Assembly (NCBI GenBank): GCA_942490825.1
Contig: CALNYG010000013.1
Span: 1 to 53,310, forward strand
Length of the DNA: 53,310 nt
DNA from: Candidatus Moraniibacteriota bacterium
GTDB taxonomy: Bacteria > Patescibacteriota > Minisyncoccia > Moranbacterales > GCA-2747515
Direction: 5' to 3'
A program made the translations under genes and the position numbers. Each line of letters opens with the position of its first letter. Position 1 is the first letter of the stretch. Below, piece after piece: positions 2,332 through 48,060 of this stretch. Under the pieces are notes generated by a model. It made no database searches, was not told the origin of the DNA, and worked only from the letters and a program-made list of their open reading frames with translations.

Positions 2332-2348
2332 GCCTGTGCGGCGAGCAC
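2332..2348 (+). repeat. Dispersed 17-nt GC-rich motif, copy 1 (GCCTGTGCGGCGAGCAC)
   Basis: Same motif at 7293, 32963, 40347, 45052, 48044. Confidence 0.9.
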
Positions 2349-2368
2349 AATTTAATTTTTGAAGTCCC

Positions 2369-2396
2369 TTGCAAGAAAAAATAATTCGTGTATACT
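2369..2396 (+). promoter_or_regulatory. Putative sigma70 promoter of rplI
   Basis: TTGCAA-N16-TATACT, 43 nt before the ATG. Confidence 0.55.
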
Positions 2397-2439
2397 ATAA
2401 ATTAGATTATGTAAGATTTGTATTTATATTAGAGACTAT

Positions 2440-2886
2440 ATGAAAGTTATATTAAACGAAGACAATAAGAATTTGGGTAAGAAAAAAGGAGACATTGTTA
2501 ATGTTTCTGATGGTTTTGCTTTTAATAGTTTGATTCCAAGTGGTATGGCTAGTCCTGCGACTAAGGAGACAATGGCTGAATTGGAGCGACAAAAAGCTCA
2601 GGATGAGGCTGTTCAGGCTGATAAAGTAAAAGCTGCCCAAGAAAATGCTAAGAAGCTAGATAAGAAGAAAGTTAATATTATTTCTAAAGCTGAGGGTAAT
2701 AAATTATTTGGTTCTGTGGATAAAAAGCAGATTGCTGAAGCAATTAAGGAACAACACAAAATTGATGTTGATGAGAAGATGATTGTGTTGGCTGAACCGA
2801 TCAAGGAGTTGACTACTTTAGAGATTGTGATTGATTATGGTAACAAGGCTAAAGCTGGTGTTATTCTAACGATTTCTTCAAAATAG
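2440..2886 (+). CDS. rplI: 50S ribosomal protein L9
   Basis: MKVIL..D..NLGKKKGDIVNVSDGFAFN.LIP.G.A N-domain; KLFGSV motif; 148 aa. Confidence 0.95.
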   Translation: MKVILNEDNKNLGKKKGDIVNVSDGFAFNSLIPSGMASPATKETMAELERQKAQDEAVQADKVKAAQENAKKLDKKKVNIISKAEGNKLFGSVDKKQIAEAIKEQHKIDVDEKMIVLAEPIKELTTLEIVIDYGNKAKAGVILTISSK

Positions 2887-2909
2887 ATTTTTAGTTAATT
2901 TAGACTTTA

Positions 2910-2939
2910 AAAGAGGCGCTTTTACTCAAGCGTCTCTTT
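2910..2939 (+). terminator. Intrinsic terminator after rplI
   Basis: aaagaggcgctt / aagcgtctcttt stem. Confidence 0.7.
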
Positions 2940-2988
2940 GACTTTGCAAAAAGGGATTTTGAGTGATTAATTTATTTAAAATAATATA

Positions 2989-3366
2989 ATGAAAGAAACT
3001 TTTGAAAATTTTTATAAGATGTTAAAATTAGATAGGGAAAAATCTTCTTTTTCGAAAAGTCATAGCTTAGAAGATAGATTTACTGAATTAAAATTAGAGA
3101 TTGAGGAAATTGGAAAAGCTCTTGAAAATAATGATACTGAAAATTTAAAAGAAGAATTAGGCGATGGTTTGTGGGATTTGCTTTTTATGATTGTGATTGC
3201 TGAGGAGAAAGGCTTATTTTCGGGAAAAGAGGTTTTTGATGGTGCGATTAAAAAATTAAAGAGAAGAAAGTCTTGGATTTTTGAGGAGGGTGAGATGAAG
3301 ACGAGAGAGGAGGAAATTGAGCTTTGGAATGAAAATAAGAGGAAAGAAAAATTGGGTTTGATTTAG
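2989..3366 (+). CDS. MazG-like nucleotide pyrophosphohydrolase
   Basis: E..EI......NDTENLKEELGD.LW.LLF and KLKRRK.WIF match the MazG all-alpha NTP-PPase pattern. Confidence 0.8.
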   Translation: MKETFENFYKMLKLDREKSSFSKSHSLEDRFTELKLEIEEIGKALENNDTENLKEELGDGLWDLLFMIVIAEEKGLFSGKEVFDGAIKKLKRRKSWIFEEGEMKTREEEIELWNENKRKEKLGLI

Positions 3367-3405
3367 TTTTTAAATAATTTTAAATAATTAATTAATTAAT
3401 TTAAT

Positions 3406-3897
3406 ATGGAAAATATTCAAAATAAAGAAGAATATCAAAGTATAAAACCAAAAGTAAATGGGTTTATATTAGTTTTACAAAGTATTTTTGCGGGTCTATT
3501 TTTCTGGGCTCCATTTGCAGGTTTCGGAGGTTTTTGGTTATATGTTATTTTTGGTCTAGAAAGTTTAATAATTTTACCTATAGTTTTTGTGTTCTTTTTT
3601 CTTATATCTTTGTTATTAACAAAATCAAGTTATGAAGAAATGGAATATAAATTTTATAAAGATAGAGTTGAATATGTTGATGGCTTTTTTGTCAAAAATA
3701 AAAAAGCAATTAAATATGAGAATATAGTTAATATTAGCCAAACAAGAGGGATTTTAATTGATAGAATATTTAATTTAGGTAAAATAAATATTTATACTGC
3801 TGGAGCAAGTTTTAGTACAGGACTGCGTATGGTTTTTATAGAAAATCCAGATTATGTTTACGATTGGATTATAAAAATAACATCTAAAGAAAAATAA
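3406..3897 (+). CDS. Membrane protein with bacterial PH (bPH_2 / YdbS-like) domain
   Basis: Two N-terminal TM segments; GFFVK....I.YENI.NI...RG....RIFNLG.I.I.TAG pattern. Confidence 0.75.
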   Translation: MENIQNKEEYQSIKPKVNGFILVLQSIFAGLFFWAPFAGFGGFWLYVIFGLESLIILPIVFVFFFLISLLLTKSSYEEMEYKFYKDRVEYVDGFFVKNKKAIKYENIVNISQTRGILIDRIFNLGKINIYTAGASFSTGLRMVFIENPDYVYDWIIKITSKEK

Positions 3898-3915
3898 TGT
3901 AATTAACAAAAAAAT

Positions 3916-5559
3916 ATGGCGAAAAAAAATAAGAAATTTATATTCGTAGTTGGAGGAGTAATGAGCGGAGTAGGAAAAGGAATAACCGCATCATCAATCG
4001 GAAGACTAGTCCAATCTCGAGGATTCAACGTAACAGCAATTAAAGTCGATCCTTACATTAACGTAGACGCAGGAACGATGAACCCAACAGAGCACGGAGA
4101 AGTTTTCGTTCTTGAAGACGGTGACGAAACCGATCAAGACATGGGGAATTACGAAAGATTCTTAGGAACAACTTTAACTCGAACAAATTACATGACAACC
4201 GGACGAGTTTACCAGTCCGTAATTGAGCGAGAAAGAAACGGTGAATACAAAGGAAAATGCGTAGAAGTAGTGCCACACATTCCATTAGAAATTATCGATC
4301 GAATTGAGACAGCAGCTGAAAAAGCCGATGCAGATGTTTCAGTAATTGAAATCGGAGGAACAATTGGCGAATATCAAAACATTCTTTTTCTTGAGGCAGC
4401 ACGGATGATGAAAGCAAAATATCCAGATAGCGTAGCGTTTGTTTTAGTAAGTTATGTACCAATACCAAATAAAGTTGGTGAGATGAAAACTAAGCCGACA
4501 CAATACGCTTCTCGAACTTTGAACGGAGCAGGAATTCAGGCAGATATTATTGTGGCTCGTTCTGATATTGAATTAGATGAAAAGCGAAAAGAAAAAATCT
4601 CACTTTCATGTAGTGTTAAAAAAGAAAATGTAATTAGTGCACCAGACGTGGAAAGTATTTATCATGTTCCTGTTAATTTTGAAAAAGATGGCTTGAGTGA
4701 TATTTTACTTAAAGAATTAAACTTGAAATCGAAGACTAAAGATTTAACTGAGTGGACTAAGTTTGCCAATAAAATTACCCGAGCAAAGAAAACTTTAAAA
4801 ATTGGAATTGTTGGAAAATATTTTTCAACCGGAGACTTTGTGCTTTCTGATGCGTACATTAGTGTAATTGAGGCAGTTAAACATGCTTGTTATTATAATG
4901 GTTGTAAACCTGAAATTGATTGGTTAGACAGTAGTGAATATGAGAAAGATCCGAAAAAACTTGAAGATTTGAAAAATTATGCAGGAATTGTAGTTCCTGG
5001 TGGATTTGGTTCTCGTGGGATTGAAGGAAAAATTAAAGTGGCAGAATTTTGTCGAGAAAATAAAGTTCCTTACTTTGGACTTTGTTACGGTATGCAAATT
5101 GCAGTGGTTGAATATGCTCGAAATGTTTTGAAACTTGAAGATGCTCACACGGTGGAGATGAAGGCAACTGCGAAGAATAAAATCATTGATATTATGCCAG
5201 AGCAAAAAAAGAAATTGGAGAATAAGGATTTTGGTGGCTCGATGCGATTAGGTAGTTATCCTGCGATCATTGCGAAGAAGACGATTGCGTTTAAGGCATA
5301 TAAGGACACTGAAGTTTCTGAGCGTCATCGTCATCGGTATGAGGTTAATCCTGAGTTTATTGAGAGACTGGAAGAAGCTGGATTGGTTTTTTCTGGGAAG
5401 TCGCCGAATGGTGAATTGATGGAGATCATGGAATTGCCAGTGAGTGTTCATCCGTTTTATTTAGCAACGCAGTTTCATCCGGAGTTTCAGTCTGCTCCGT
5501 TAGATCCGCATCCTTTGTTTATGGGTTTTGTGAAGGTGGCGAAAAAATTGAGTGAGTAA
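3916..5559 (+). CDS. pyrG: CTP synthase
   Basis: GGVMSGVGKG, DPYINVDAGTMNPTEHGEVFV, GLCYGMQ, ERHRHRYE, QFHPEF. Confidence 0.99.
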   Translation: MAKKNKKFIFVVGGVMSGVGKGITASSIGRLVQSRGFNVTAIKVDPYINVDAGTMNPTEHGEVFVLEDGDETDQDMGNYERFLGTTLTRTNYMTTGRVYQSVIERERNGEYKGKCVEVVPHIPLEIIDRIETAAEKADADVSVIEIGGTIGEYQNILFLEAARMMKAKYPDSVAFVLVSYVPIPNKVGEMKTKPTQYASRTLNGAGIQADIIVARSDIELDEKRKEKISLSCSVKKENVISAPDVESIYHVPVNFEKDGLSDILLKELNLKSKTKDLTEWTKFANKITRAKKTLKIGIVGKYFSTGDFVLSDAYISVIEAVKHACYYNGCKPEIDWLDSSEYEKDPKKLEDLKNYAGIVVPGGFGSRGIEGKIKVAEFCRENKVPYFGLCYGMQIAVVEYARNVLKLEDAHTVEMKATAKNKIIDIMPEQKKKLENKDFGGSMRLGSYPAIIAKKTIAFKAYKDTEVSERHRHRYEVNPEFIERLEEAGLVFSGKSPNGELMEIMELPVSVHPFYLATQFHPEFQSAPLDPHPLFMGFVKVAKKLSE

Positions 5560-5566
5560 TTTTTTG

Positions 5567-6493: not shown

Positions 6494-6532
6494 ACACCGT
6501 AGAAACGTTGCATTGCAACGTTTCTACGGTGT
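6494..6532. repeat. REP-type perfect palindrome (GTAG family) upstream of the RAYT
   Basis: acaccgtagaaacgttgca-t-tgcaacgtttctacggtgt, 19-bp perfect arms. Confidence 0.9.
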
Positions 6533-6546
6533 AAGGAATTAAAACA

Positions 6547-7140
6547 ATGCAAATAAATCCAGAAAAATTCAAAAATAAATATCGCACAAAATCAACCCGT
6601 TTACAAAACTGGAATTACGCATCAGCAGGTTGGTATTACATAACAATTTGCACAAAAAACAAAGAAAATTATTTCGGAAAAATAAAAGACCAAAAATTAA
6701 TTTTAAATGAAATAGGAAAAATCGCAGAAAAATTTTGGTCAGAAATTCCAAAACATTTTCAAAACGTACGATTAGACGAATTTATAATTATGCCAAATCA
6801 TATTCATGGAATAATTGTGATTGATGATGTGGAGGATGATGTTGTTGTAGAGACGTTGCAGTGCAACGTCTCTACGATGAAGGAAGGAAAAAATAAATTT
6901 TATTCAAAAATCTCACCAAAACCACGATCATTATCAACAATCATTCGATCATTCAAATCAATCTGCACAAAAACAATAAACAATAATTTTAAAATAAAAA
7001 ATAACAATCAAAAAATAAATTTTGCATGGCAACCAAAATTTTATGATCACATAATTCGCAACGAAGAATCTTTAAACAAAATTCGAGAATATATTTTTCA
7101 AAATCCTTTTAACTGGGAAAAAGATGAAAATTTTAAGTGA
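6547..7140 (+). mobile_element. REP-associated tyrosine transposase (RAYT / TnpAREP, Y1 HUH family)
   Basis: YYITICT, HUH motif MPNHIHGII, SLSTIIRSFKS, WQPKFYDHIIR and YIFQNP; flanked by GTAG palindromes. Confidence 0.9.
6847..6875. repeat. REP palindrome inside the RAYT coding sequence
   Basis: gtagagacgttgca-g-tgcaacgtctctac, translated in frame as VETLQCNVST. Confidence 0.9.
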
Positions 7141-7190
7141 TTTTTAGATTTATGATTTTTTGCAGAAAATTCTTTGTCTTCTTATTTTTA

Positions 7191-7215
7191 AAACGTTGCA
7201 GTGCAACGTTTCTAC
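7191..7215. repeat. REP palindrome downstream of the RAYT, left GTAG degenerate
   Basis: aaacgttgca-g-tgcaacgtttctac. Confidence 0.85.
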
Positions 7216-7245
7216 AAAAAAGAAAATATATTTTCCGGAATGACA
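7209..7245 (+). repeat. Repeat tttctac(A)n gaaaatatattttccggaatgaca, copy 1
   Basis: Identical to 47953-47986 apart from A-run length (6 vs 3). Confidence 0.85.
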
Positions 7246-7292: not shown

Positions 7293-7309
7293 GCCCGTGC
7301 GGCGAGCAC
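7293..7309 (+). repeat. Dispersed 17-nt motif, copy 2
   Basis: GCCCGTGCGGCGAGCAC. Confidence 0.9.
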
Positions 7310-7341
7310 AATTATTTTTATTCTTAATTATTTTTAAAAAC

Positions 7342-7386
7342 TTATCGAGATTGCCACGTCGTCGCTCCGCTCCTCCTCGCAATGAC
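7342..7386 (+). repeat. Palindromic-element right half ttatcgagattgccacgtc...cctcgcaatgac
   Basis: Shares its first 19 nt and its cctcgcaatga end with 2251-2297. Confidence 0.8.
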
Positions 7387-7508
7387 GCGAAAGGTAAAGT
7401 GAAATATTTTCACTTGTCAATGTGTATTATTAATATATACGTAAAAACAAAAAACCAAATTTCCAATTTTTACCAAAAAACTTCTTAAATCATCAACATT
7501 CTCAAAAT

Positions 7509-9305
7509 ATGTCATCAGATGTCGAATTAGTAAAGTCCAGAATTAACATTGTGGATATAATAGGAGAGTACGTAAAATTGATAAAAGCTGGAGGCAGTCT
7601 AAAAGCTAATTGCCCATTTCATCAGGAAAAAACACCATCTTTTGTAGTCAATGAAGACAAACAGATTTATCACTGTTTCGGTTGCAATCAAGGTGGAGAC
7701 GTTTTAACTTTTTTGATGGAGATGGAGAGCATTGGATTTCGTGAAGCATTGCAAATGTTGGCAGAAAGATCAGGGATTGAATTGCAAAATAATTTTACAC
7801 AAAATAAAGAAGAAAAGAAAAAAAATGATTCATTTTATTCTATCTTAGATTTATCAGCTCGATTTTACGCAAAGCAAATTTGGTCAGATGAAAAAAATAA
7901 AATCTTAGAATATTTGCGAGACAGGGGTATGGGTGACGAAATTATCAAAAAATTCAAAATTGGATTTGCACCAGATGGTTGGAATAATTTAGAGAATTTT
8001 TTAGTTAAACAGGATTTTACGAAAGAGGATATTTTTGAATCAGGGCTTTTAGTGAAAAAAAAGTCAGATGGATATTACGATCGTTTTCGCAACAGAATTA
8101 TTTTTCCAATTGCAGATTCTCTAGGGCGAGTGGTTGGATTTACAGCTCGAGTTTTACCAGGTGATGATGAATCTCAGGCAAAATATATCAACACTCCAGA
8201 ATCACCACTTTATCATAAGAGTAGTATTCTTTACGGAATCGATTTAGCAAAGCAGATAATTAAGCAGAAAGATCAGGTGATAATTATGGAGGGGAATATG
8301 GATGTGATAGCAGCTTGGCAGGCGGGCGTGGAAAATGTAGTGGCAGTTTCAGGGACAGCTTTAACAGATGATCATATTAAAATTCTAAAACGGTATACGA
8401 AAAATTTTGTTTTATTTTTTGATTCAGACGATGCTGGGATGAAAGCGGCAGAACGAAGTGCAAAAACTTGTTTGTCAGCAGATGTTAATTTATCAATGGT
8501 TGTTTTAAAAGAAGGAAAAGATGCTGCGGATATTGTCAAAGATAATCCTGAAAAGTTGCAAAAAATTATTGATGAGGTAAAAAATGTTATTGATTCATTT
8601 ATTGATTTAGCAAAAGAGAAATATGACTTGTCAGATCCTCGCGGTAAAAGATTGGCAGTTGATGAAGTTATATCATTCGTTGCTCACATTGATAATTCGA
8701 TAGAACGAGAAGCTTGGGTTTTAAAATGTGCTGATATTTTTAATGTTGATGAGAAAATGATTTATGATGTAGTGACAAAACATCGCGCAGAGGAAAATAA
8801 AACTTTCAAAGGTAATAAAAATGTTCAGGAAAATGAAAAGGTTGAAGTAAGTGATGCAGTTAAGAATTCAAGATTATATCGATTATATAAATCAATCGCT
8901 TTAATAATGCTATCTTATCCACATGTTTGGAAACATATTTATGAAAACAAGGAAAAATTTTCAATCTTAATGGATCATAATTTTTTAGCAATTTTATTTA
9001 AAGAAGGTTTAGATTGTAATTTCGAAGCAGGCAATTTCGTCAGTAAAGATAATAGTCGAGAAAATATTTATAAAGAAGCTTTGAATTTTAAACAAAGATA
9101 TGAAATTGAGCATCAAGATGAGAGTAGTCCGATTGCAGACGTAGAAGATTATTTTAAGAATATTATTCAGGAGAAAAATAAACAAGAAATTACTCAATTA
9201 ACTCAACAATTGAAACAGATGCAAAAGAAGGGTAATTATGAAAAGCAAAAGGAAATTTTAGAAAAAATAACTCAAGCTTCTAAAAATTTAATTAATTATT
9301 CATAA
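7509..9305 (+). CDS. dnaG: DNA primase
   Basis: CPFHQEKTPSF and CFGC zinc finger, YYDRFRNRIIFPI, KYINTPE, EGNMDV and DSDDAG TOPRIM motifs. Confidence 0.98.
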   Translation: MSSDVELVKSRINIVDIIGEYVKLIKAGGSLKANCPFHQEKTPSFVVNEDKQIYHCFGCNQGGDVLTFLMEMESIGFREALQMLAERSGIELQNNFTQNKEEKKKNDSFYSILDLSARFYAKQIWSDEKNKILEYLRDRGMGDEIIKKFKIGFAPDGWNNLENFLVKQDFTKEDIFESGLLVKKKSDGYYDRFRNRIIFPIADSLGRVVGFTARVLPGDDESQAKYINTPESPLYHKSSILYGIDLAKQIIKQKDQVIIMEGNMDVIAAWQAGVENVVAVSGTALTDDHIKILKRYTKNFVLFFDSDDAGMKAAERSAKTCLSADVNLSMVVLKEGKDAADIVKDNPEKLQKIIDEVKNVIDSFIDLAKEKYDLSDPRGKRLAVDEVISFVAHIDNSIEREAWVLKCADIFNVDEKMIYDVVTKHRAEENKTFKGNKNVQENEKVEVSDAVKNSRLYRLYKSIALIMLSYPHVWKHIYENKEKFSILMDHNFLAILFKEGLDCNFEAGNFVSKDNSRENIYKEALNFKQRYEIEHQDESSPIADVEDYFKNIIQEKNKQEITQLTQQLKQMQKKGNYEKQKEILEKITQASKNLINYS

Positions 9306-11642: not shown

Positions 11643-12464
11643 ATGTCGGCTCTGAGAATGATTGATGAAATGGTAAATACTTCATTAATTTGGGATAAAT
11701 CTATTCAAAGAATTGGAATGGATGGCAAAGGAGTTAGCAAAAGAAAACAAGTTTTTAACATTACTAATTTAATTGATAATGAGGTGATAGGTGTTCTACC
11801 AAATTTATCACAAAAAGAATTGCTGAAAGAATTATTAAAAATTGATTTAAAATTTAGATTAGCAGTTAAAGAAGTATGTATTGATATGGACTCTTTTTTT
11901 CCAGCTATTATTAAAGAATGTTTTCCTAATGCGGTTATTGTGATTGATCATTTTCATATAATTCAGTGGGCTGTCTTTTTATTAAAAGAACAAAAGAAAG
12001 TTTTTCAAGACATCAACAATGAATCTTATAAAATAAATAAATTACTGATGATACCTACACACAAATTAACAATTGAAGAATTTAATAAATTAGAAAAAGT
12101 TTTTGTTAAAGTTCCTAAGTTAAAACAAAGTTGGAAAATAATTCATCAACTCAGAAAAGTATATTGGAAAAATAACAGAAAAGAAGCTCAAAAACAATTA
12201 AAATATGTCATCAGTCTTTGTAAAACTTCAGAATCAAAATATATGAAAGATTTGGCTAATACATTAACAAGATGGTTTGATGAAATATTAAATTATTATT
12301 TATCTAAAACAACTAATGCTTATACTGAAGGAATTCATAATCATTTTGAAAGAATTAAAAGGAATCATTTTGGGATTAGGAATGTTGAACGTTTTTGTAA
12401 AAGATTATTATTTTGTATTCTTCCGATGACAATTTTATTAAATTTAGTTGCCCAAAGATGTTAA
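11643..12464 (+). CDS. ISL3 transposase catalytic part
   Basis: RIGMDG, VCIDMD, VIDHFHIIQ, TNAYTEGIHNHF; stop lies in the right IR. Confidence 0.9.
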   Translation: MSALRMIDEMVNTSLIWDKSIQRIGMDGKGVSKRKQVFNITNLIDNEVIGVLPNLSQKELLKELLKIDLKFRLAVKEVCIDMDSFFPAIIKECFPNAVIVIDHFHIIQWAVFLLKEQKKVFQDINNESYKINKLLMIPTHKLTIEEFNKLEKVFVKVPKLKQSWKIIHQLRKVYWKNNRKEAQKQLKYVISLCKTSESKYMKDLANTLTRWFDEILNYYLSKTTNAYTEGIHNHFERIKRNHFGIRNVERFCKRLLFCILPMTILLNLVAQRC

Positions 12465-12472
12465 AGAGCCAC

Positions 12473-12675: not shown

Positions 12676-15600
12676 ATGAATACAAAAATAAATACAAAGA
12701 AATTTTTTTTAACTCTAATTACAGTTTTAATATTATTTCTAAGTTTTTTAGAAAGCAATGCCTCATTTACCCAAGATAATAATAATGGATATTTCGATGT
12801 AAATTTTGATAATCAGACAGGTTGGGAAACAGATAGTGTTAATCAAGACTCGCTAGGAAATTATCTTTCAGAAAATACTGAAGTAGTAGGTGATTCTTCA
12901 CTAACTATTATTACAGGGCAATCTTCAGCTAATGTAACTACTCTAAAAATACAACCAGCGTCTTTTAGTGCGTGGGGAGATGTAACTCTAGATATAACTT
13001 ATGCTAATTCAAGCGATGCTTCTGTTTCACTATATGATTGTCAATCTCCTTCAGTTCCAATTTCAGGCTATTTAGAAATGCCATTAAATGGAGGTAAAGT
13101 AGACATTTCTTCTTTGGATAAAACAACTTACCCATGCATTAGAGCTAAAGTTAATTTTAATCAAACTAATACAAATTTACCAAAGCCTGTTTTAAATTCA
13201 ATAAATGTTGATTGGGATTCATTACCAGTTTTCTTAATATCTCACAGTGCTCAAAGTGAAGTTCAAGCGGGGGATGATGTAACTTATGCAATTAATTATT
13301 CTAATTCCTACTCTGATGCACATGATGTGGTGGTTTACGCACCATTACCAACTGTATCTAATAATAGTTATGGTCAATCAGTCAGTCCAACTTTAAGACA
13401 AGCATCTGATGGCGGTTTATTTACTGATACAGAAATAGTGGTTAACGATGTAACTATTCCAGCTAATTCAGTTTATTGGAGTTTAGGAACAGTGCCAGCT
13501 GGATTAACTACAGTTCTTAAATATAATATAACTACAGAAAATGGATTAGAAGACGGAATTAACTATGCATCAAAAGTTGTTATTAATAGTTCAGAGGCGG
13601 AAGCAGAAGGTTCAAATTCAGTAGATACTGTAATAATTTCTACCCCTAAACCAAATGTTGATAAAACTGTTTCGGGTGTTTATAATGTTGGTGGAATAGA
13701 TTATGTGAATACTCAAGGAAATGAATCTCAGGTTATTTATACTATAAATATTAAAAACCTTTATGAATCCAGAGGAAGGGAGACTATTTTTAATCCAGTT
13801 ATAACTGATGATTTAGGTGCTATTTTTGATAAATTAACTAATCAATGTAGTGAATCCAATCCAGAAGATAGAATTAGTGAGATTTCTAATGGAGGGGTTT
13901 TAAATGTGGGCGATCAAAAAATAGTTTGGGATGGTTTTAATCACTTAGGACCAGGAGAAGCGGATAGTGTTAGTTTCAAAGTGGATTATATTAACTGTAA
14001 TTTAGATGAAACTATTAGCAATAGTGCGAGTTTAACAGCTGATAATATGCCTGAACAGTTGGCTAATGTTGATGTAAAGATTGGTTTAGATCTAGAACCA
14101 AATGGATATTTTGCTAAAGGTGATAAAGTGAGGGGGGTTTCATCAATTTTAGCTGGTCGTGATGATAATAGAGATAAAAAACAATTTTACGAAGAAACTT
14201 TTTCTTATTTGATAAAAACAGGAAACAGAGGAATAGTTACTTTAAATGATAACTATATAATTGATAAAGTAGATTCTAGACTGACTTTTATTTCAGCGAG
14301 CATGCCTTCAAATTTAAATGCAATTACTTACTACAATGTAGATGGTGTAAATAATGATCCTAATGATCCTCCAGATTTTGACAATGTTAATGGAGTGTTG
14401 AGTGGTAATTGGACAACTGCAGAACCAAATGATCCAAGCACTATTAATTGGGTAGCTTTTTATATTCCTTGTCTTTCATCAGATCTTTTCCCTTCCTCTT
14501 CAGGAAGCTGTCAAGATGTTCCAAGTAGTGGTATTGCTACTATTCAAGTTAAAGTAAATACTTCTGATAAAGTGTGTAATTTCTACGATATTAGCAATTT
14601 AGGGAATTTCCATACATTTCAAGCTTCTGCTGACATTAGTAATGATGATAGTAATTTAGTATCAGTAAATTTATCATCTTTTGATGAAGAATTGACTCAT
14701 ATAGCTCCAGCTTTAGCGGATCTATCTATTTCTTCTAGTGTAACAGGACCAAAAGAATTGGGAACTACAGAAATTGGCGAATATGTTTTTAGTGTTAAAA
14801 ATAGTGGAAGTGACACTGCACAAAACACTGTTTTAACTTTAGAAATTCCACAGCTGAGCATTAATGGAATAATGCAGCCTATCAATTTAGTAGGGATAAG
14901 TGGAGGTGTAGTTGATTACAGTGGACTTCCTAATCAAGTATCAATTAAATTAGAAAATATTCCTCAAAATGTTACTAAAGAAGTTAGAATTAATTTAAGC
15001 GTTCCTCAAGGTGTGTCAGTTGATGACACTTTTGAATTAACAGCGGAGCTAAAAGCTAAAGATGATCAAGATTGTCAGGAAATTACAACTAATCTTTCTT
15101 ACTTAACTAAAGTTAAATCTTTACCAGAATTAGATGTTAGAAAAACAGTGGATCAGTCAATTATTAAATCAGGAGGTGTATTGAATTATCAACTTCATTT
15201 CCAAAATAGTGGTGATGCTCCAAGTCACCAATCTTTTGTAGTGGATCAGATTCCAGAAAAAACCATCTTTCAAAAAGCTTACACTACTGGAACAGATGAT
15301 AATTTTAATGAATATACTTGCAATAGTAATTGTAAGGTATACTTTGCAAATCAGTCTGCGATAGATTCAGGTGATTTGCCATCCAATTTATCTCCAAGTG
15401 AGCCCTTTTCTGCTTCCGAAATTTTAAGTAATTTTTCCTTAGGGAATGAGGCTGATGGAGAATGGATACCATCTTTTGATTCTGAAGATGTAGTTTATGT
15501 AGCTTATTTAGTTGATACAGTAATAGATGGCAATGGTCAAGCGTTGCTTCCAACAGGTACATCTGGAAAAGTAGGTTTAGAAATTAAAAATGATGAAGAT

Positions 15601-18600
15601 GGAAGTGGATCTCCTCAAGGAGAAATAATTTATAATTATCCAGCTATCTTATCAGCGGAACTTTTACAAGCTATTGGAAACACGGTTAGTTCAATTATTT
15701 TACCTGATCCAGGATTAAGAATTGAAAAAACATCAGACAAAGAAGTTATATACGCTGGGGAAGAATTTAATTGGAATGTTGATTATTTTAATGATGCAGG
15801 CAATGATGATACAGAGGTTGTAATAACAGACACCCTTCCTTTAGGCGTGAGTTTAATTGCAGTTTATCATCAATGGAATGATGCTACTTTAAGCAATGAC
15901 AGCAGCTTATCAGTTGCCGAAGAAGAAATTACACAAAATAGTAATGTTACTATTACGTACAATGTTAATGGGACAACTACTGTAGAAGTTGCAATCTCTC
16001 AAGGATTAAGAGGTGGGAATCTTCAAAATATTGAAGGTGGAAACTTAAGATTCAAAGTAAAAACTGATGAAGATTCGTTAACTTTTTCAACTTTAGTAAA
16101 TGAAGTGGAAGGATTTTTCAAGAATGAAGATCACCAACATACTGTCAGAGATGAAGATGATGTTCGAATAGTTAATCCAGATCTATATTTAATTAAATTG
16201 GTAGATAAGGCGGAATTAATTAATGGTGAGGATATCAACTATTATTTAATTGTTTCTAATGAAGGTCTACACGATTCAGTTAACACTGTTATTGCAGATG
16301 TTTTGCCAGCTGGTCTTTGCTACCAAGGAGGGAGTACACAAGTTTTAACTGCTGACTGGTCAATTGGCGAACCAGATGTTCAAGTGCAGAACGACGATTG
16401 TGAAAATTACCCAACTACTTTAATTTGGTCAATTGCTAATGGTAATGAATTACAAAAATCAGGTTTAGATTCAGCTGTTATTCCAGCTAATAGTGAAAGT
16501 ATTAATATCACTTATCAAGTTAATGTAACTAATGTAGATCAAGGATCAGTTGTAGTTAATAATGCAAGTATTACTAATGACTTGCCAGAAACTCCAGATG
16601 AATATCCAAATAGTGACAACAAGGAAATTAGAGTGCCTTTCCCAGATCCATATATTATTAAACAAGCTGAAAAATCAACAGTGCTTCCAGGAGAGGCTTT
16701 TGATTTTAACCTTATTTATGGAAATAATCAAAGAGAAACTGCTACTGATGTTTATTTTATTGATAAGTTCCCAGATTATGACAATGATGGAACTGCTGAT
16801 TTAACTTTAATTTCAGTTTCACCATCAGTGAAAAATGAAACTATTTATTATACTGATCAAGCTTCAAGTGTAAGTGATTATACTTTTCCAAATTTTGATT
16901 ACAATAACCCAACTGATAATGGCTGGACAGTTGATAAAAGTACTTTGTCTAATCCAGTTACTCACATTGCTTTATCTGTTGGTAATTTAACAGAATTAGA
17001 AGGACCGTATACAGCAACTTTAACTTTTAAAGCGACTGATCCAGATATAGATCAGGATTTAGATGCAGGTTTAATTTTAAATAATCAAACTGAAATATTT
17101 TCATCAACTGTAGATGACGATTTAACCAATAACCAATCAGAGGATGACGTTAGAACTCCTAATATTGATTTGGTGATTAACAAAGATTTAGTTCAAGAAG
17201 GATTTTCTTTTGGGGTAACTCCAGGTGAAGTGTTAACTTATGACATTACTTTTAAAAATCAAGGAGTGGTCAGTGCTTGTGGAGTCAGGGTAACTGAGAC
17301 ATTACCAGATGAATTAGAAGTTGTAGATCCAATTCATAATTTTAATACTCTAGAATTAGTTGGTGGATCTGAAAATTCAGTTAAGCCTAAGGATCCAAAC
17401 GGAATTGATATTGATGAAAATGTTTTTACAACCTTTAGTAACCTGGGAAATAATAAGTATCAATGGTTAATTGGAACAGATATAGGAGATGAAACTGATT
17501 ATACGCAAGTTTGTTTACCGCCAGGTTCACAACAAACTTTTCAAATTTACGCTAGAGTAAAAGATGATGTAGAAGATGAAGCTTCAATCACAAACGTTGT
17601 TAGAATTGATGAAGACACTGATGCTGTTGAAGAAGTGATGGACAATAATGAAGCTTATGACACAACTGTAGTTTATAAAACTGATATCTTAGTTAAAAAA
17701 GAAGGAAAGGGTTGTGGTGAAGATGATATTTGTGGTAATAGAGATGACAATTATTCAGAAGTAAATCCAGGAGATATAGTTGAGTATGAAATTGAATACG
17801 GCAATATAGGAAGTATTGATGCAGAAAATGTGGTTATTGATGAAATTATTCCAGAAGGAACTTGTTATAAATTAGGAACAGTGGAGGCTAGTCAACCATC
17901 TTCAACAATTGTTACTTATTCAAATGATAATGGTGTAACATATAGTTATTCTCCAGTTGATAGTGGTGATGGAACTGATTGTATGATAACTAATTTTAAA
18001 GTTAATTTTAATTCTGCATTGCCTAGTCCTACTAATTTTATTGGAGAAGATGATGTCTTTATTGGAGATGTAAATCAGGTTGCAGTTGGGGATAAAGTTG
18101 AATTGGTTGTTACTGATCAGGAAAATTGGGTGAGGACTTTTGGAGGTGATGCTAATGATATGAGCAATAGTATAGCTGTAGATTCAGCAGGCAACATTTA
18201 CACCACAGGATCTTTTAATGGAAAAGTAAATTTTGATAGCACAGGCGGCACAGATGAACATACTTCAAACGGAGAGAGTGATATTTTCATAACTAAATAT
18301 AACGCCGACGGATCTTACGGCTGGACCAGAGCCTTTGGCGGAACAGGTAAGGGTGTTAGTCATGGAATTTCTATTGATTCATCAGATAACATTTACACCA
18401 CAGGATATTTTAATGGAACAGTAAATTTTGATAGTACAGGCGGCATAGATGAACATACATCTAATTTTGGTACCGATATTTTCATAACTAAACATAACGC
18501 CGACGGATCTTACGGCTGGACCAGAAGCTTCGGTGGAATGAGTATTGATTCTGGCCATAGTATTTCTACCGATTCATCAGGTAGCATTTATATCACAGGA

Positions 18601-32964: not shown

Positions 32965-32979
32965 CCGTGCGGCGAGCAC
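32963..32979 (+). repeat. Dispersed 17-nt motif, copy 3, abutting the REP
   Basis: ATCCGTGCGGCGAGCAC. Confidence 0.9.
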
Positions 32980-33064: not shown

Positions 33065-33801
33065 ATGATGAATCTTGAAAATAAAAAAATTATTATCACT
33101 GGTGCAGCAGCGGGGATTGGTAGGGCTACGGCGGTGAAGTGTGTTGAATATGGTGCAACTGTTTTGGCTATTGATATTAATGAAGATGGCCTGAATAAAT
33201 TGCGAGATGAGTTTGGGGATGATAAGATTCAGATTTTTAATTTTGATATTTCAAATTTAGATGAAATTAAGAATTTTTTTGATCAAATTAGAAAAGATAA
33301 TGTTGAGATTTATGGTCTCGTAAATAACGCAGGTATTTATTTGGGGAAATCTGTTTTGGAATATAGTGATGTAGATATTGAAAAAGTAATGGCGGTAAAT
33401 TTGATAGCACCAATTTATTTTTCTAAGGAATTTGCTCGGGAAAAAATAAGTGAAAAAAACAGGGTGTGATTGTAAATATTGCGTCTGTTTCGGGTGAAGC
33501 AGGAACGTCGGAATCGGTTTATGGTGCGACTAAAGCGGGAGTGATTGGTTTGACGAAAAGTAATGCGATTGATTTTTCTCCTTATGTTCGGATTAATGCG
33601 GTTGCTCCGGGAACGACAAAGACTGCTTTGATGGATTGTATGTCAGAGGAGCGAATTAAGATTCATGAAGATAGGGAATTGATTGAGGGTTGTACTCAAC
33701 CTGATGATATTGCGAATGCGGTTTTGTTTTTGCTGTCGGATGATTCGAAACATTGTGCAGGGATGACTTTGGATGTTAATAATGGGTATTATTTGAGGTA
33801 A
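33065..33801 (+). pseudogene. Short-chain dehydrogenase/reductase (FabG-like) split by a -1 frameshift
   Basis: First half TGAAAGIG and NNAGI; second half IVNIAS, YGATK, RINAVAPG; halves join if one A is added to the A7 run 33453-33459. Confidence 0.85.
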
Positions 33802-38835: not shown

Positions 38836-39657
38836 TTAACATCTTTGGGCAACTAAATTTAAGAAAATTGTCATCGGAAGAACACAAAATAATAATCTTT
38901 TACAAAAACGTTCAACATTTCTAATCCCAAAATGATTCCTTTTAATTCTTTCAAAATGATTATGAATTCCTTCAGTATAAGCATTAGTTGTTTTAGATAA
39001 ATAATAATTTAATATTTCATCAAACCATCTTGTTAATGTATTAGCCAAATCTTTCATATATTTTGATTCTGAAGTTTTACAAAGACTGATGACATATTTT
39101 AATTGTTTTTGAGCTTCTTTTCTGTTATTTTTCCAATATACTTTTCTGAGTTGATGAATTATTTTCCAACTTTGTTTTAACTTAGGAACTTTAACAAAAA
39201 CTTTTTCTAATTTATTAAATTCTTCAATTGTTAATTTGTGTGTAGGTATCATCAGTAATTTATTTATTTTATAAGATTCATTGTTGATGTCTTGAAAAAC
39301 TTTCTTTTGTTCTTTTAATAAAAAGACAGCCCACTGAATTATATGAAAATGATCAATCACAATAACCGCATTAGGAAAACATTCTTTAATAATAGCTGGA
39401 AAAAAAGAGTCCATATCAATACATACTTCTTTAACTGCTAATCTAAATTTTAAATCAATTTTTAATAATTCTTTCAGCAATTCTTTTTGTGATAAATTTG
39501 GTAGAACACCTATCACCTCATTATCAATTAAATTAGTAATGTTAAAAACTTGTTTTCTTTTGCTAACTCCTTTGCCATCCATTCCAATTCTTTGAATAGA
39601 TTTATCCCAAATTAATGAAGTATTTACCATTTCATCAATCATTCTCAGAGCCGACAT
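38836..39657 (-). CDS. ISL3 transposase catalytic part
   Basis: Near-identical to 11643-12464; I/V and L/F differences near the C-terminus. Confidence 0.9.
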   Translation of the reverse strand: MSALRMIDEMVNTSLIWDKSIQRIGMDGKGVSKRKQVFNITNLIDNEVIGVLPNLSQKELLKELLKIDLKFRLAVKEVCIDMDSFFPAIIKECFPNAVIVIDHFHIIQWAVFLLKEQKKVFQDINNESYKINKLLMIPTHKLTIEEFNKLEKVFVKVPKLKQSWKIIHQLRKVYWKNNRKEAQKQLKYVISLCKTSESKYMKDLANTLTRWFDEILNYYLSKTTNAYTEGIHNHFERIKRNHFGIRNVERFCKRLLFCVLPMTIFLNLVAQRC

Positions 39658-39710: not shown

Positions 39711-40031
39711 CTATGACAGAGTTTTTTTAAAAGCTGTGCTCATTTGTTGCCCTTTTTTAACTTGAGGTAAAGATTCCCAAAGTTTCTTTTTATGTTTAGA
39801 AAAATAAAATCTTCTTTGAGTAATAGCTATAAAAACTTTTTTATTTTCAAACATAGAATGAGCAATTATTCTATTTCTTTTTTGATTAATTTTTTTACTT
39901 ACCTCATTTTTTAATTTAAATGAATTCTTTTGTAAATGACAATGTAAAATTATTTTATCATTTTTTTCTTCAAATTTATCTAAAATATATCCTTCTAAAT
40001 TGAATATTTTTTTAATCTCTTTTTTTTGCAT
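39711..40031 (-). CDS. ISL3 transposase N-terminal part
   Basis: 106 aa, ends shortly after an A7 run from which the -1 frame leads into the catalytic ORF. Confidence 0.8.
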   Translation of the reverse strand: MQKKEIKKIFNLEGYILDKFEEKNDKIILHCHLQKNSFKLKNEVSKKINQKRNRIIAHSMFENKKVFIAITQRRFYFSKHKKKLWESLPQVKKGQQMSTAFKKTLS

Positions 40032-40346
40032 TTTTAAAATATTAAATTATTAAAATAACTTAATATTTAAGCATAGAATTTAACAAATTTCAATACTTAG
40101 CTTTGCCCAAAGATGTTAAAGAGCCAAAAAAGTGTGCTGAATGTGGGTCTGATGTTCAGAATGATGAGGCACGGGAGGTTGAAGGAAGAATTTTGTGTAT
40201 AAAATGCTGGTGCAAACGTACTGGCTTAAAAGAAAAAGACCTTGAATTGAATGATTAATGAATTTGTTGCGAGGGGGTATTCCATAGGTATTACCTCCCT
40301 AATTTTTTTTAATTCATACTTTTTAAATTTTCTCTAATCTCAAAAA

Positions 40347-40363
40347 GCCCGTGCGGCGAGCAC
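40347..40363 (+). repeat. Dispersed 17-nt motif, copy 4
   Basis: GCCCGTGCGGCGAGCAC. Confidence 0.9.
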
Positions 40364-40401: not shown

Positions 40402-40429
40402 TTGTAAAACACAGGATTTCAGGTATACT
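40402..40429 (+). promoter_or_regulatory. Putative promoter of lepA
   Basis: TTGTAA-N16-TATACT ending 8 nt before ATG 40438. Confidence 0.55.
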
Positions 40430-42280: not shown

Positions 42281-42316
42281 AAAGTCCAACCTTCGGATGT
42301 CCGAAGGTTGGACTTT
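42281..42316. repeat. Perfect palindrome after lepA (terminator and/or second REP-like family)
   Basis: aaagtccaaccttcgga-tg-tccgaaggttggacttt, 17-bp arms. Confidence 0.8.
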
Positions 42317-42335
42317 TGTATAGTTTGATTTTTTC

Positions 42336-42415
42336 ATAAAAACAAAAAAGTTATCGGTTAAGATAACTTTTTTATTTGCTGTAAAGATTCCAAATTTTTG
42401 GTTTGAAATGTTTAG
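42336..42415 (+). repeat. ~80-bp hairpin-containing repeat, copy 1
   Basis: Matches 44773-44853 closely, apart from the loop. Confidence 0.85.
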
Positions 42416-43467: not shown

Positions 43468-43623
43468 TAAATAGTTTATAGATAATAATAGGATAAAATG
43501 GCTGGTAAGAATGTAGAGATATTGTAATTTTTTTAGAATGAGATTATTTTTATCCTGAGAAAATGTAAACAACGTCAGGTAATCTTATACTTCATTTTAT
43601 AAAATTTTTTTAAAGTTTAAAAT

Positions 43624-44688: not shown

Positions 44689-44772
44689 TTTTTAACCGTG
44701 TTTGTCGCATGGGAGATAATACATGATAATGCTGTTAGAGATGAGTTTATCTTTTTGTAAATAAATTTTTAT

Positions 44773-44853
44773 ATAAAAACAAAAAAGTTATCTTAATCGA
44801 TAACTTTTTTGTTTGCTATAAAGATTCTAAAATTTTTGGTTTGAAATGCTTAG
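44773..44853 (+). repeat. ~80-bp hairpin-containing repeat, copy 2
   Basis: Matches 42336-42415. Confidence 0.85.
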
Positions 44854-45051: not shown

Positions 45052-45089
45052 GCCCGTGCGGCGAGCCTGCCTGTTCGGCAGACAGGCAC
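45052..45089 (+). repeat. Dispersed 17-nt motif, copy 5, interrupted by a 21-bp hairpin insert
   Basis: GCCCGTGCGGCGAGC-ctgcctgttcggcagacaggc-AC. Confidence 0.85.
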
Positions 45090-45107
45090 TTTTATTTTTT
45101 TGAATTA

Positions 45108-45116
45108 TGCTATAAT
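45108..45116 (+). promoter_or_regulatory. Extended -10 promoter of clpB
   Basis: TGcTATAAT. Confidence 0.6.
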
Positions 45117-45137
45117 AAAAATATAAAAAATAATCTT

Positions 45138-45167
45138 TTGAACAAGGGATTATAACCTCTTGTTCAA
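45138..45167. promoter_or_regulatory. Inverted repeat in the clpB 5' region
   Basis: TTGAACAAG-N12-CTTGTTCAA between promoter and ATG. Confidence 0.55.
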
Positions 45168-45184
45168 GAATAAGAACAAAAAAT

Positions 45185-47791
45185 ATGGATGTAAATAAAT
45201 TTACTAATAAGTCGCAAGAAGTACTTAGCGAGGCACAAAAAATAGCACAAGAAAAAAACCAACAAGCAATCGATTTGGGACATTTACTTTTAGCATTAAT
45301 TTTGCAAAAAGATTCTATTGTTCCTGTGGTTTTAGCAAAGAGTGAAATTGATGTGGAAGAAGTTTCTAAAATTATTGAATCGGAAATTATCGCAAAATAT
45401 TCCAGCGTTTCTCAAACTAGTGATGAACCACAATTTTTTATTTCGCAAAATTTAGCTAAAGTTTTAGAAAAATCTGAAAAGGAAATGAAAGATATGGGGG
45501 ATAATTTTGTTTCAACAGAACATATTTTTCTAACACTTTTAAATTCTGATAAAATAATTGAGAATATTTTTAAGCCTTTTAATTTAACTTACGATTCTTT
45601 TAAAAATATTTTGAAGGAAGTTCGTGGTTCGCAGAAAGTTGATAGTCAAAATCCAGAGGCAAATATGCAAAGTTTAGAAAAATATACAATCAATTTGACA
45701 ACTCAAGTTCGAGAAGATGAAATGGATCCAATCATTGGGCGGGACAAGGAAATTCGGCGAGTGATGCAAGTTCTTTCTCGACGAACAAAAAATAATCCAG
45801 TTCTTCTTGGCGAACCTGGAACAGGAAAGACGGCGATTGCTGAAGGTTTAGCTCAGAGAATTATAGCGGGTGATGTGCCAGAGTCTTTGAAAAATAAGGA
45901 GATTATTGCTTTGGATTTAGGAGCTCTTTTAGCAGGAGCAAAATTTCGGGGTGATTTTGAAGAGCGTTTGAAAGCGATTTTAAAAGAGATTGAAAGTAGT
46001 GATGGCCAGATTATTTTATTCATTGATGAATTACATACATTAGTTGGTGCAGGGGCGAGTGAGGGCTCTCTAGATGCGTCGAACATGTTAAAACCAGCTT
46101 TGGCTCGGGGAAAAATTCGAACAATTGGAGCAACAACTTTGAAAGAATATCAAAGATATATTGAAAAAGATGCAGCTTTGGAGAGGCGTTTTCAGCCAGT
46201 TTTTGTTGACGAGCCTGATACTGAAGATGCGATTGCAATTTTGCGTGGAATCAAGGAAAAATATGAATTGCATCACGGTGTTAAAATTACAGACAATGCT
46301 TTGATTGCGGCGGTCAATCTTTCTGAACGTTATGTGTCTGATCGTTTTTTGCCAGATAAGGCAATTGATTTAGTGGATGAGGCTGCATCATCTTTGAGGA
46401 TGGAAATTGATTCTATGCCTGTGGAAATTGATCAACTGGAGCGAGATATTAGACGAATGGAAATTGAGAAAAAAGCATTAGAAAATGAAAAGAGAAAAGA
46501 AAATGACGAAAAAATTGTAATTTTAAATAAAGAATTGGCGGAGTTGAAAGAGCAATCTAATAAATTGACTTTGCAATGGAGGACGGAAAAAGAAATCATT
46601 ATGGCGGTTCGAAATCGTCGAGAGGAAATTGATAAAATGAAAACGGAGGCAGAAAACTTAGAACGAGCAGGTGACTTGGAAAAGGTGGCGGAAATTCGTT
46701 ATGGAAAAATTCCGGAGTTACAGGGATTGTTAAAAGAAGAGGAGATTAAATTAAATAAATTGCAAAAAGAAAATCCTATTTTGAAAGAAGAGGTTACAGA
46801 AGAGGATATTGCGGGAGTTGTTTCTCGTTGGACAGGTGTGCCAGTTTCTAAAATGTTAGAAAAGGAAATGCAAAAATTAGCGGTGATGGAAAAAGAATTA
46901 CAAAAAAGATTAGTTGGTCAGGAGCATGCGGTAAAAATTGTTTCGAATGCTATCCGACGATCTCGAGCGGGAATTTCTGATGAAAATCGACCGATTGCTT
47001 CTTTTATTTTTCTTGGTCCAACTGGCGTGGGTAAAACTGAATTGGTTAAAGCTTTAGCGGAATTTCTTTTTGATGATGAGAAATCTTTAGTGCGGATTGA
47101 TATGAGTGAATATATGGAATCGCATGCAGTATCGAAATTAATTGGTTCACCTCCTGGATATGTTGGTCATGAAGAAGGTGGACAATTGACTGAAATCATT
47201 CGGCGAAAACCTTATTCTGTAATTCTTTTTGATGAAATTGAAAAAGCACATCCTGATGTTTTCAATATTTTTCTGCAAATTATGGATGATGGGCGATTGA
47301 CTGATAGCAAAGGAAGAACAGTTGATTTTACTAATTCTGTGATTGTTATGACTTCGAATGTTGGTTCGGAAATTATTCAGAAAATGCAGGAAGAGACAGA
47401 TGGTGAAACTGATGAAGTTAAAATGCGAGAAAAAGTGATGCAAGAGATGAGTCAGCAATTTAAACCTGAATTTTTGAATCGAGTTGATGACATTATTCTT
47501 TTTCATCCACTTTCTAAAAAAGATATTATTCAGATTTTAGATATTCAAATTAAGAATGTTCAAGGGCGTTTACAAAAGAAGGGAATTAGTGTTAATATTT
47601 CAGATAAGGCTAAAGAATTTTTGGCAAATCGAGGTTTTGATCCTGTTTATGGTGCTCGTCCGTTGAAACGAGTTATTCAGAATGATGTTTTGGATCCAAT
47701 TGCGATGAAAGTCATTGAAGGTGAGCTTTTAGATGGTGGAGTGGTTGAAATTGATTTAGTTGATGGAGAATTGGTTGTTAAAAGTGTGTAA
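45185..47791 (+). CDS. clpB: ATP-dependent disaggregase ClpB
   Basis: Clp N-domain, GEPGTGKT and GPTGVGKT Walker A motifs, M-domain coiled coil, [13 protein letters not shown]. Confidence 0.98.
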
Positions 47792-47952
47792 CTTTATAAA
47801 CGGTGTGTTATCCTAAAAAATTACTTTGTAACGAAATGGAAGAATAATTTTTTCAAGATACCAGAATAACAATATACTTTGAATTTTATTTAAATTTAAA
47901 GTGTAGGTTCTGGATAAATTATTTTCTAGTTTTGAAATGCGATAAATCGGCA

Positions 47953-47986
47953 TTTCTACAAAGAAAATATATTTTCCGGAATGACA
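47953..47986 (+). repeat. Repeat tttctacaaagaaaatatattttccggaatgaca, copy 2
   Basis: Matches 7209-7245. Confidence 0.85.
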
Positions 47987-48043
47987 TGTTTGAAAGTTTA
48001 TAATAAATTTTTTAAAATTTCTGATAATAACAAATAGTGAAAA

Positions 48044-48060
48044 GCCCGTGCGGCGAGCAC
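48044..48060 (+). repeat. Dispersed 17-nt motif, copy 6
   Basis: GCCCGTGCGGCGAGCAC. Confidence 0.9.

Follow-up and report, generated by a model that had tools for sequence, protein, structure and literature searches.

A strand-polarised 17-nt hairpin motif of Moranbacteria as a candidate REP/BIME-like dispersed repeat

What kind of element is a GC-rich 17-nt sequence that recurs between genes, always on the same strand, in strongly AT-rich bacterial DNA? The question is raised by a 53,310-nt stretch of a Candidatus Moraniibacteriota genome (contig CALNYG010000013.1, positions 1 to 53,310; the window hereafter, meaning the whole stretch analysed), in which copies of the 17-mer GCCCGTGCGGCGAGCAC begin at positions 2332, 7293, 32963, 40347, 45052 and 48044. 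The observations establish a real, abundant and at least genus-wide repeat with a constrained, strand-specific hairpin. Conserved DNA on the gene side and fast-changing repeat DNA meet sharply at the motif, which decays in one relative and is absent further out. We tentatively read it, with a probability of roughly 0.4, as a new lineage-restricted dispersed hairpin module resembling repetitive extragenic palindromes (REPs) and bacterial interspersed mosaic elements (BIMEs), which would act in single-stranded form, be spread and homogenised by a single-stranded DNA (ssDNA) pathway and perhaps have an insulating side effect.

Copies in the window and in relatives

All six copies listed by the initial annotation of this DNA were recovered on the + strand at up to three mismatches, and the - strand of the window held none at that threshold. 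Shuffled sequence gives a chance expectation of 0.01 copies, and none of 100 shuffles reached six. The 11-nt core GTGCGGCGAGC is exact in six of six copies; the sole further near-match to it in the window, at 30998 with one mismatch, is coding and unrelated. The host DNA is AT-rich, as had been said (the window is ~30% GC), with a strong positive GC skew and nearly all genes on the + strand. Every copy is intergenic, and an 84-aa open reading frame (ORF) with a TTG start that runs across copy 3 found no support. The genes 3' of copies 1 to 6 are those named at the outset: L9 (rplI), DnaG, a short-chain dehydrogenase/reductase (SDR), LepA, ClpB and a metallophosphoesterase. Copies occur about once per 9 kb in the window and once per 6-9 kb overall.

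Copy 1 (2332-2348, +; GCCTGTGCGGCGAGCAC) lies 91 nt 5' of the rplI start. Copies 2 (7293-7309, +), 4 (40347-40363, +) and 6 (48044-48060, +) are perfect 17-mers, placed respectively 153 nt 3' of a gene resembling REP-associated tyrosine transposases (RAYTs) and 199 nt 5' of dnaG, 74 nt 5' of the lepA ATG (40438), and 56 nt 5' of the metallophosphoesterase gene. Copy 3 (32963-32979, +; ATCCGTGCGGCGAGCAC) sits 3 nt 3' of a 29-nt GTAG palindrome and 85 nt 5' of the SDR gene. Copy 5 (45052-45089, +), upstream of clpB, consists of GCCCGTGCGGCGAG (45052-45065), a 21-nt hairpin insert CCTGCCTGTTCGGCAGACAGG (45066-45086) and CAC (45087-45089); it is a perfect motif split by a hairpin, not a two-mismatch variant, and its orthologue at L062:2419 is uninterrupted. 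Three copies carry hairpin inserts, this one of 21 nt and two in the relative of 36 and 37 nt (L027, ~7744-7779; L039, ~4659-4695), all between G14 and C15 of the motif. Their consensus, CCTGYCTGTT...CAGACARR, was seen nowhere else in ~400 kb; such inserts represent either a mini-insertion specific to this motif or a loop capable of expansion.

The motif scan covered one genome per species, and figures from it are lower bounds. It placed the motif in at least 43 low-GC loci. Among the matches listed, 42 come from the metagenome-assembled genome (MAG) 'Candidatus Moraniibacteriota RS_12_31' (JAGLWU01); the 43rd locus (L057) is labelled Methylococcales but has the composition and modules of the JAGLWU01 loci and is probably a mis-binned contig. 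The JAGLWU01 loci share syntenic stretches with the window at 77-92% DNA identity, summarised as ~85-90% where the two align, and hold at least 57 further distinct copies, mostly perfect. Pooling the window with the MAG loci gives 63 distinct exact-core copies, whose consensus is AAAA-GCCCGTGCGGCGAGCAC followed by ~12 T-rich bases; the A-rich 5' and T-rich 3' flanks first noticed in the window are borne out by the pooled set of 61-63 copies. The mismatch spectrum, taken without conditioning on the core and with up to five mismatches allowed, comprises 77 hits: 49 with none, 11 with one, 8 with two, 5 with three, 0 with four and 4 with five, the last four being probably chance. One coding copy was seen in JAGLWU01, near position 3305 of L048, in frame within an O-antigen ligase gene (Wzy_C; L048:2638-3984, - strand). 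There the motif encodes a basic loop, KKPVRRAL, at a place where homologues have AKNKKER-like sequence. The exact ends of an inserted unit could not be drawn from this copy, the nearest homologue being 62% identical and the net gain ~4 residues.

Two features of the genes that follow the motif may be recorded here. The SDR gene 3' of copy 3 is broken in two: one ORF (33065-33469) matches the N-terminal half of adh_short and another, overlapping it (33466-33801), the C-terminal half. A relative (L020) has both halves in one frame, so the window gene is frameshifted, as a pseudogene or through a sequencing error. Inspected by eye, the starts at 2440, 33065, 40438, 45185 and others have no visible Shine-Dalgarno-like GGAGG, and their leaders are A/T-rich.

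A conserved hairpin at the edge of mosaic repeats

The mini-hairpin GTGC-GGCGA-GCAC, proposed from the six copies by eye, is borne out by covariation in an alignment of 20 distinct sequence variants. The stem (positions 5-8 with 14-17), read on the motif strand, is paired in 98.8% of cells and contains compensatory changes, and its covariation score was equalled in 1 of 500 shuffles; read on the complementary strand, the same stem is 92.5% paired, again with compensatory changes and a score equalled in 1 of 500 shuffles. Pair 7-15 occurs as G-C, G-U, A-U (in Elusimicrobium, L012, 97 nt from a canonical copy) and C-G (in L074, as a tandem neighbour), and pair 8-14 as C-G, U-G and U-A. An alternative 5-bp hairpin, GCCCG/CGAGC (1-5/11-15), was rejected: pairing was 69% or 83% depending on the strand, with compensatory changes on neither. 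The supported palindrome is thus the 4-bp stem and 5-nt loop only, 13 nt in all and short of the ~20-40 nt of a REP. As RNA the hairpin has an energy of ~-4.3 kcal/mol. The 5' flank of the motif is GCCC, without GTAG, and is the least conserved part of the 17-mer.

Orthologous sites give the same picture of a constrained hairpin. Copies 1, 3, 5 and 6 of the window have orthologous copies in the MAG, and across these four pairs 0 of 52 positions changed in the 13-nt hairpin, against 4 of 16 in the GCCC flank. From the motif to the next gene the DNA is colinear at ~84-92% identity in four of four pairs; on the 5' side it is unalignable in four of four and built of different modules (at the copy 1 orthologue in L037, for example, ~92% of the 3' flank is conserved and the 5' flank cannot be aligned). 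A third relative (L080; Logan SRR31654895) carries the motif upstream of clpB and of the phosphoesterase gene, both sites as in the window, and the copy 6 site is thus occupied in the window, in the MAG (L048) and in this relative (L080:5666, with a 1-nt loop insertion). Both L080 copies are damaged (GCCCGTGTGGCG, truncated, and GCCCGTGCGGGGCGAGCAC), and its 21 kb contain none of the other repeat modules. A ClpB-anchored metagenome scan returned distant relatives only (at most 65% identity), and the motif is absent from these more distant low-GC clpB loci of the candidate phyla radiation (CPR). One orthologous spacer has the motif in the MAG and none in the window (43476-43620), representing a gain or a loss. 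Given the conservation of position across three species, the copies are not simply recent transposon ends; gain or loss, the intragenic copy, decay in L080 and absence further out are together behaviour typical of a repeat family.

The physical tie between the motif and REP-like palindromes, first seen at a few window copies, extends to the family. A GC hairpin ends within 14 nt of the 5' side in 21 of 60 copies (35%), compared with 41 of 2000 random positions (2%); for the 3' side of the motif the figure is 3 of 60 (5%). The order is fixed, namely hairpin, A3-6 and 17-mer, always on the 5' side of the motif. The palindrome that adjoins copy 3, as had been reported, is one such case (32931-32959; GTAGAAACGTTGCATTGCAACGTTTCTAC, with AAA as the spacer). 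GTAG palindromes differ in sequence between the two species and are alike in spacing, CTAC-AAA-(G/A)(C/T)CCG; species-specific REPs at the same position suggest that REP-type hairpins land next to the motif. Other modules upstream combine freely, with head modules A/B (long AT-rich hairpins ending ...GAATGACA) and middle hairpins C-F (AACAAGGGGTCATGACCCCTTGTT, GTAGGGGTTTGCCAGTGGCAAACCCCTAC, GTAGGGGTTTAAAATTTTAAACCC) placed ahead of the 17-mer, and asymmetric modules lie on the motif's strand in ratios of 15:0, 11:2 and 7:1. Two shared segments picked out in the window also proved correct: GAAAATATATTTTCCGGAATGACA, common to copies 2 and 6, is a MITE-like module end (miniature inverted-repeat transposable element; 7221-7245, +, 5' of copy 2, and ~47962-47986, 5' of copy 6), and tatgtatca is common to copies 2 and 5. 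As a rare exception on the 3' side, a module CTTATCGAGATTGCCACGTC...CTCGCAATGAC follows copy 2 (7341-7390, +), and a second copy of it lies 5' of copy 1 (~2250-2300). Modules of this type and of the ...CCGGAATGACA type presumably resemble short repeats of many phyla that are often mis-translated as small proteins. The Elusimicrobiaceae locus L022 has a similar ...cgggaatgacg module.

Further repeats and mobile DNA are present in the window. An ISL3-family transposase is present 5' of copy 4 in two - strand ORFs (38836-39657 and 39711-40031), and since it is split in this way it is probably disrupted. An inverted-repeat-like insertion sequence (IS) end, ...TTTGCCCAAAGATGTTAAAGAGCCA, is found at 40086-40126, with a solitary copy at 12431-12471 that is 80% identical. 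Another repeat family is represented by a 90-nt direct repeat (78% identity) at 42315-42404 and 44752-44841, in spacers, with a terminator-like hairpin AAAAAAGTTATC...GATAACTTTTTT. Elsewhere in the window, a giant ORF of 3291 aa (12676-22551), whose product is probably a surface protein, contains six 195-nt tandem repeats (18181-19455) and ~17 units of the 9-nt repeat AACAACTCC (TTP/TPT-rich) at ~21768-21920.

The RAYT-like gene, other phyla and known repeat families

The gene upstream of copy 2 (6547-7140, +) encodes a RAYT-like Y1 (HUH) transposase with the HUH motif MPNHIHG and WQPKFYDHIIRN. Its ORF matches Pfam Y1_Tnp (E=3.7e-8) and NCBIfam REP_Tyr_transpos (E=1.9e-19; 70 bits, under the 80-bit cut-off), and aligns with the E. 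coli TnpA-REP structure PDB 4ER8 at E=0.0034, with the HUH and catalytic-tyrosine motifs covered; homologues of the protein are named RayT by JGI. Just 5' of the gene is a REP palindrome (6494-6537, with the core GTAGAAACGTTGCATTGCAACGTTTCTAC at 6499-6527), just 3' of it is a partial palindrome of the same family (7182-7225), and a further one lies in frame inside the gene (6847-6875, peptide VETLQCNVST). These palindromes belong to the 29-nt family GTAGA(A/G)ACGTTGCA, bearing GTAG. Homologues in unrelated bacteria (L161, GC 45%; L163, GC 26%) keep the in-frame palindrome, and in L163 this REP recurs immediately 3' of the gene. Judged by sequence, this REP is embedded in the RAYT-like gene and travels with it. 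The 17-mer is present near the gene as one copy, on one side only. IS200 ends were also considered as a source of the motif and rejected: tblastn found a pseudogene only, in L080, and its ends are unrelated to the motif. That pseudogene (L080:11410-11680) is a truncated, frameshifted IS200-like TnpA (DHVHLLI...GGRFWTSGYYINTVG).

Outside the CPR, the 17-mer occurs among the matches listed in the Elusimicrobia loci L009, L012 (twice), L016, L022 (twice) and L026, often after a hairpin AGAGGTyCwAGGCCTC; a Melainabacteria locus has two copies, and L074 has a pair in tandem. By a rough estimate the scan pattern should yield ~20 chance or coding hits, and isolated hits in GC-rich genomes were discounted; the non-CPR cases taken as real are Elusimicrobia, L019 and L074, which have second local copies. 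Hits in viral contigs, L074 excepted, were coding (peptide CPCGEH) or GC-rich chance matches. That Elusimicrobia have the 17-mer, with compensatory changes in its stem, suggests horizontal movement of the element or of its reader. At three non-CPR sites (L019:7175, L021:4555 and L026:2462), opposite-strand ORFs of 1061, 421 and 487 aa end exactly at the motif edge, the G of the terminal TAG coinciding with base 1 of the motif's reverse complement (...GCACTA on the forward strand).

That the 17-mer fits no described repeat family, as the initial annotation had supposed, held against curated models as well. Rfam gave no match at the gathering threshold except one tRNA, and around the copies only chance-level hits with E up to 10. 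In the literature, neither the 17-mer nor the 11-mer core appeared on either strand in relevant contexts, and a search for CPR repeats returned papers on TIGR-Tas only, with none on REP/BIME-type repeats. To our knowledge, repeats of this type have not been described from CPR genomes. TIGR-Tas arrays were rejected as an identity, since they neighbour tas genes and contain box C/D motifs, which are absent here. Four further ideas, a micro-ORF (MPVRRAL), a sigma-54 promoter, likeness to CRISPR repeats and a collapsed group II intron (suggested by GUGCG...AC downstream of a hairpin), were dropped, as none went beyond resemblance.

The closest known systems share some properties with the motif and differ in others. 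Like the REPs and BIMEs of enterobacteria, the Moranbacterial repeats are high-copy extragenic hairpins and mosaics of ordered modules, lineage-specific and uniform within a genome, with a RAYT-like gene in the same genome and GTAG palindromes directly adjoining the motif. Both the fixed order of REP hairpins and conserved motifs that marks BIME mosaics and the high-copy extragenic distribution of REPs were found. Unlike a REP, however, the motif is 17 nt long with a 4-bp stem, has no GTAG and no inverted pairs, lies almost always on one strand, and neither flanks a RAYT gene symmetrically nor occurs beside RAYT homologues elsewhere. In behaviour it seems closer to the linker or end motifs of BIMEs than to a REP. 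The BOX elements of Streptococcus pneumoniae (boxA-boxB-boxC) are likewise modular and intergenic; in both systems the middle varies, the terminal module is conserved, no transposase is encoded and gene starts are nearby. There is no sequence similarity, however, and BOX modules are 45-59 nt with two conserved ends, whereas here there is one very short end that also occurs solo. The ends of IS200/IS605 elements and their MITE forms (palindrome-associated transposable elements, PATEs) offer a small subterminal hairpin read on one strand, and the Moranbacterial genome does encode a Y1 HUH enzyme. The orientation of IS200/IS605-type elements is tied to the lagging-strand template. In contrast to such ends, the motif has no left/right end pair, target tetranucleotide or element body and is stable at orthologous sites across species. 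Opposed copies are more than 1 kb apart, with no close inverted pairs (REPINs), and the bracketing of a transposon by opposed copies was rejected, since the enclosed genes are housekeeping ones (flippase, RuvC, DEAD-box helicase, RecR and thymidylate kinase), not transposases.

What the motif may do

If the motif is a REP/BIME-like module, its working part would be the 13-nt hairpin, formed by the motif strand when single-stranded, in lagging-strand template DNA or in sense read-through RNA. The motif would be the fixed gene-proximal module of mosaic repeat clusters, and REP hairpins would accumulate next to it as a landmark. Gain and loss on its 5' (A-tract) side would involve GTAG palindromes, long MITE-like hairpins, an IS and even entire genes, and its 3' side would always be the neighbouring gene's conserved promoter or stop codon. 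Copies may be spread and kept uniform by an ssDNA pathway, with an HUH/Y1 enzyme such as the RAYT-like protein beside copy 2, or gene conversion, as candidate agents. The same pathway may dock REP hairpins beside the motif, leading to the common strand polarity, and the A-tract, small GC hairpin and T-tract could act upstream of promoters as a weak signal for insulation or transcript ends.

Several results weigh against this reading. The motif lacks GTAG and forms no inverted pairs, and a mobilisation event with defined ends was never caught. The 4-bp hairpin is thermodynamically ordinary (DNA -3.2 kcal/mol, z = -0.2), so it would need a partner in order to matter, and the excess of C-to-T wobble variants on the G-rich strand could be a mutational strand bias. 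The 17-mer is not the REP of the window's RAYT, whose cognate REP is a different 29-nt palindrome, the one that flanks the gene; the RAYT homologue loci L161-L163, with 6-20 kb of surroundings, do not contain the 17-mer. No RAYT was found in ~350 kb of sampled JAGLWU01 loci, and a protein search for an orthologue returned nothing above 62% identity, hence no close orthologue for this copy-rich relative. The earlier proposal of a non-autonomous element, possibly RAYT-mobilised, therefore stands in part: the link to REPs holds and the window does encode a RAYT-like protein, but the motif is not that RAYT's REP, and the expected co-occurrence with RAYT genes failed at the homologue loci. Lastly, positional conservation in three species and the perfect orthologous 13-mer fit host-level selection as well as they fit concerted evolution.

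Host selection is the basis of an explanation that we consider possible though unlikely, in which the motif is a transcription insulator or mini-terminator that blocks sense read-through or divergent antisense transcription at promoter edges and after convergent genes. A co-oriented 3' neighbour typically starts 55-120 nt away, and promoter-like sites, many with an extended -10 (often TGnTATAAT), lie 0-75 nt 3' of the motif (TTGTAA-16-TATACT at 40402-40429, between copy 4 and lepA, is one); convergent 3' neighbours usually have their stop codon 5-20 nt away. As in intrinsic bidirectional terminators, an A-tract, a GC hairpin and a T-tract lie between genes, and some copies come right after stop codons. 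Here the hairpin is short and would have a stable pentaloop. The 12 nt 3' of the motif are ~70% T, A occupies each of the 4 nt 5' of it in 49-61 of 61 copies, G-U pairs are tolerated in the motif-strand hairpin, the inserts of copy 5 and L027 yield a canonical long hairpin before the same T-tract, and a scanner calls copy 1 (+) and, in reverse, copies 4 and 6 terminator-like. A 4-bp hairpin would also be constrained at every position, with GCCC free to vary. Yet the stem is short for a terminator, where at least 5 bp is usual, a T directly follows it in only about half of the copies, and an invariant loop is no requirement of termination. Copies 3 and 4 are already separated from the upstream gene by canonical terminators (for copy 3, that of rplL at 32883-32915), and the 5' spacer is generally long, the upstream stop lying a median of ~250 nt from sense copies with other terminators between. 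The next ATG follows several sense copies after 13-45 nt and one antisense copy after 27 nt, too close for a promoter to fit between, and the motif is absent at the same loci in other CPR bacteria.

Rather less probable is a replication-polar chromosome signal, a lagging-strand-template hairpin read by the replication, repair or segregation machinery in the manner of the polar motifs Chi, KOPS/SRS and Ter. The locally G-rich strand carries 58 of 62 copies (a co-orientation above 90%, as for such motifs), contigs of tens of kb show a single orientation throughout, the density is regular and Chi-like, and the sequence is strictly conserved. Motif orientation also tracks gene direction, with the upstream and downstream genes same/same relative to the motif in 34 copies, opposite/same in 8, same/opposite in 6 and opposite/opposite in 5, so that gene direction and skew are confounded and cannot be cleanly parted in the sampled DNA. 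Where gene and contig-wide orientation conflict, the motif follows the contig ~5:2, and in L004 and L035 it keeps the replichore orientation with both flanking genes on the other strand, but L039:2601 and L027:5288 are clear exceptions. Known polar signals are 5-8 nt long and tolerated in genes, whereas the motif is longer, confined to spacers and hairpin-forming; being degenerate in one close relative and absent in other CPR bacteria, it is not essential, and its attraction of other repeats, piled up on one side, is left unexplained. A double-stranded operator for a global transcription factor, upstream of ~100 promoters, is very improbable. The motif is promoter-proximal, a TTGACA -35 starts directly or 1 nt after it in a few copies (those of Elusimicrobium L012 and Oscillospiraceae L061 among them), and GTGC/GCAC has dyad symmetry; against this, promoter spacing runs from 0 to >100 nt without helical phasing, 11 copies face a convergent gene end with no promoter there, the site is invariant, not degenerate, wobble variants lose the dyad symmetry yet keep pairing, and inserts of 21-37 nt are tolerated within it. 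Least credible of all is a DNA uptake sequence. Natural competence is common in CPR bacteria, and the 17-mer is exact, over-represented, mostly extragenic, common to close relatives and decaying in another lineage; known uptake sequences, however, occur in both orientations at ~1 per kb, and here there is a strong one-strand bias at 1 per 6-9 kb, together with hairpin covariation, a polar association with repeats and occurrence in Elusimicrobia. A bolder proposal, which we hold to be improbable, is that the hairpin is a host-used strand-specific ssDNA signal on the lagging-strand template that marks transcription-unit boundaries every ~6-9 kb, has as its reader either a domesticated HUH enzyme or a factor of replication, repair or segregation, and is shared horizontally between Moranbacteria (CPR) and Elusimicrobia.

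For the lineage itself, the repeats amount to a dense, modular and strand-polarised system in a genome thought to be streamlined, with a 13-nt hairpin as its most conserved piece. They offer a tractable case for the spread and uniformity of tiny hairpin repeats, for RAYT-type docking of REPs at a landmark and for promoter insulation in co-directional genomes. In practical use, the motif pinpoints spacer boundaries and rearrangement-prone DNA in these MAGs.

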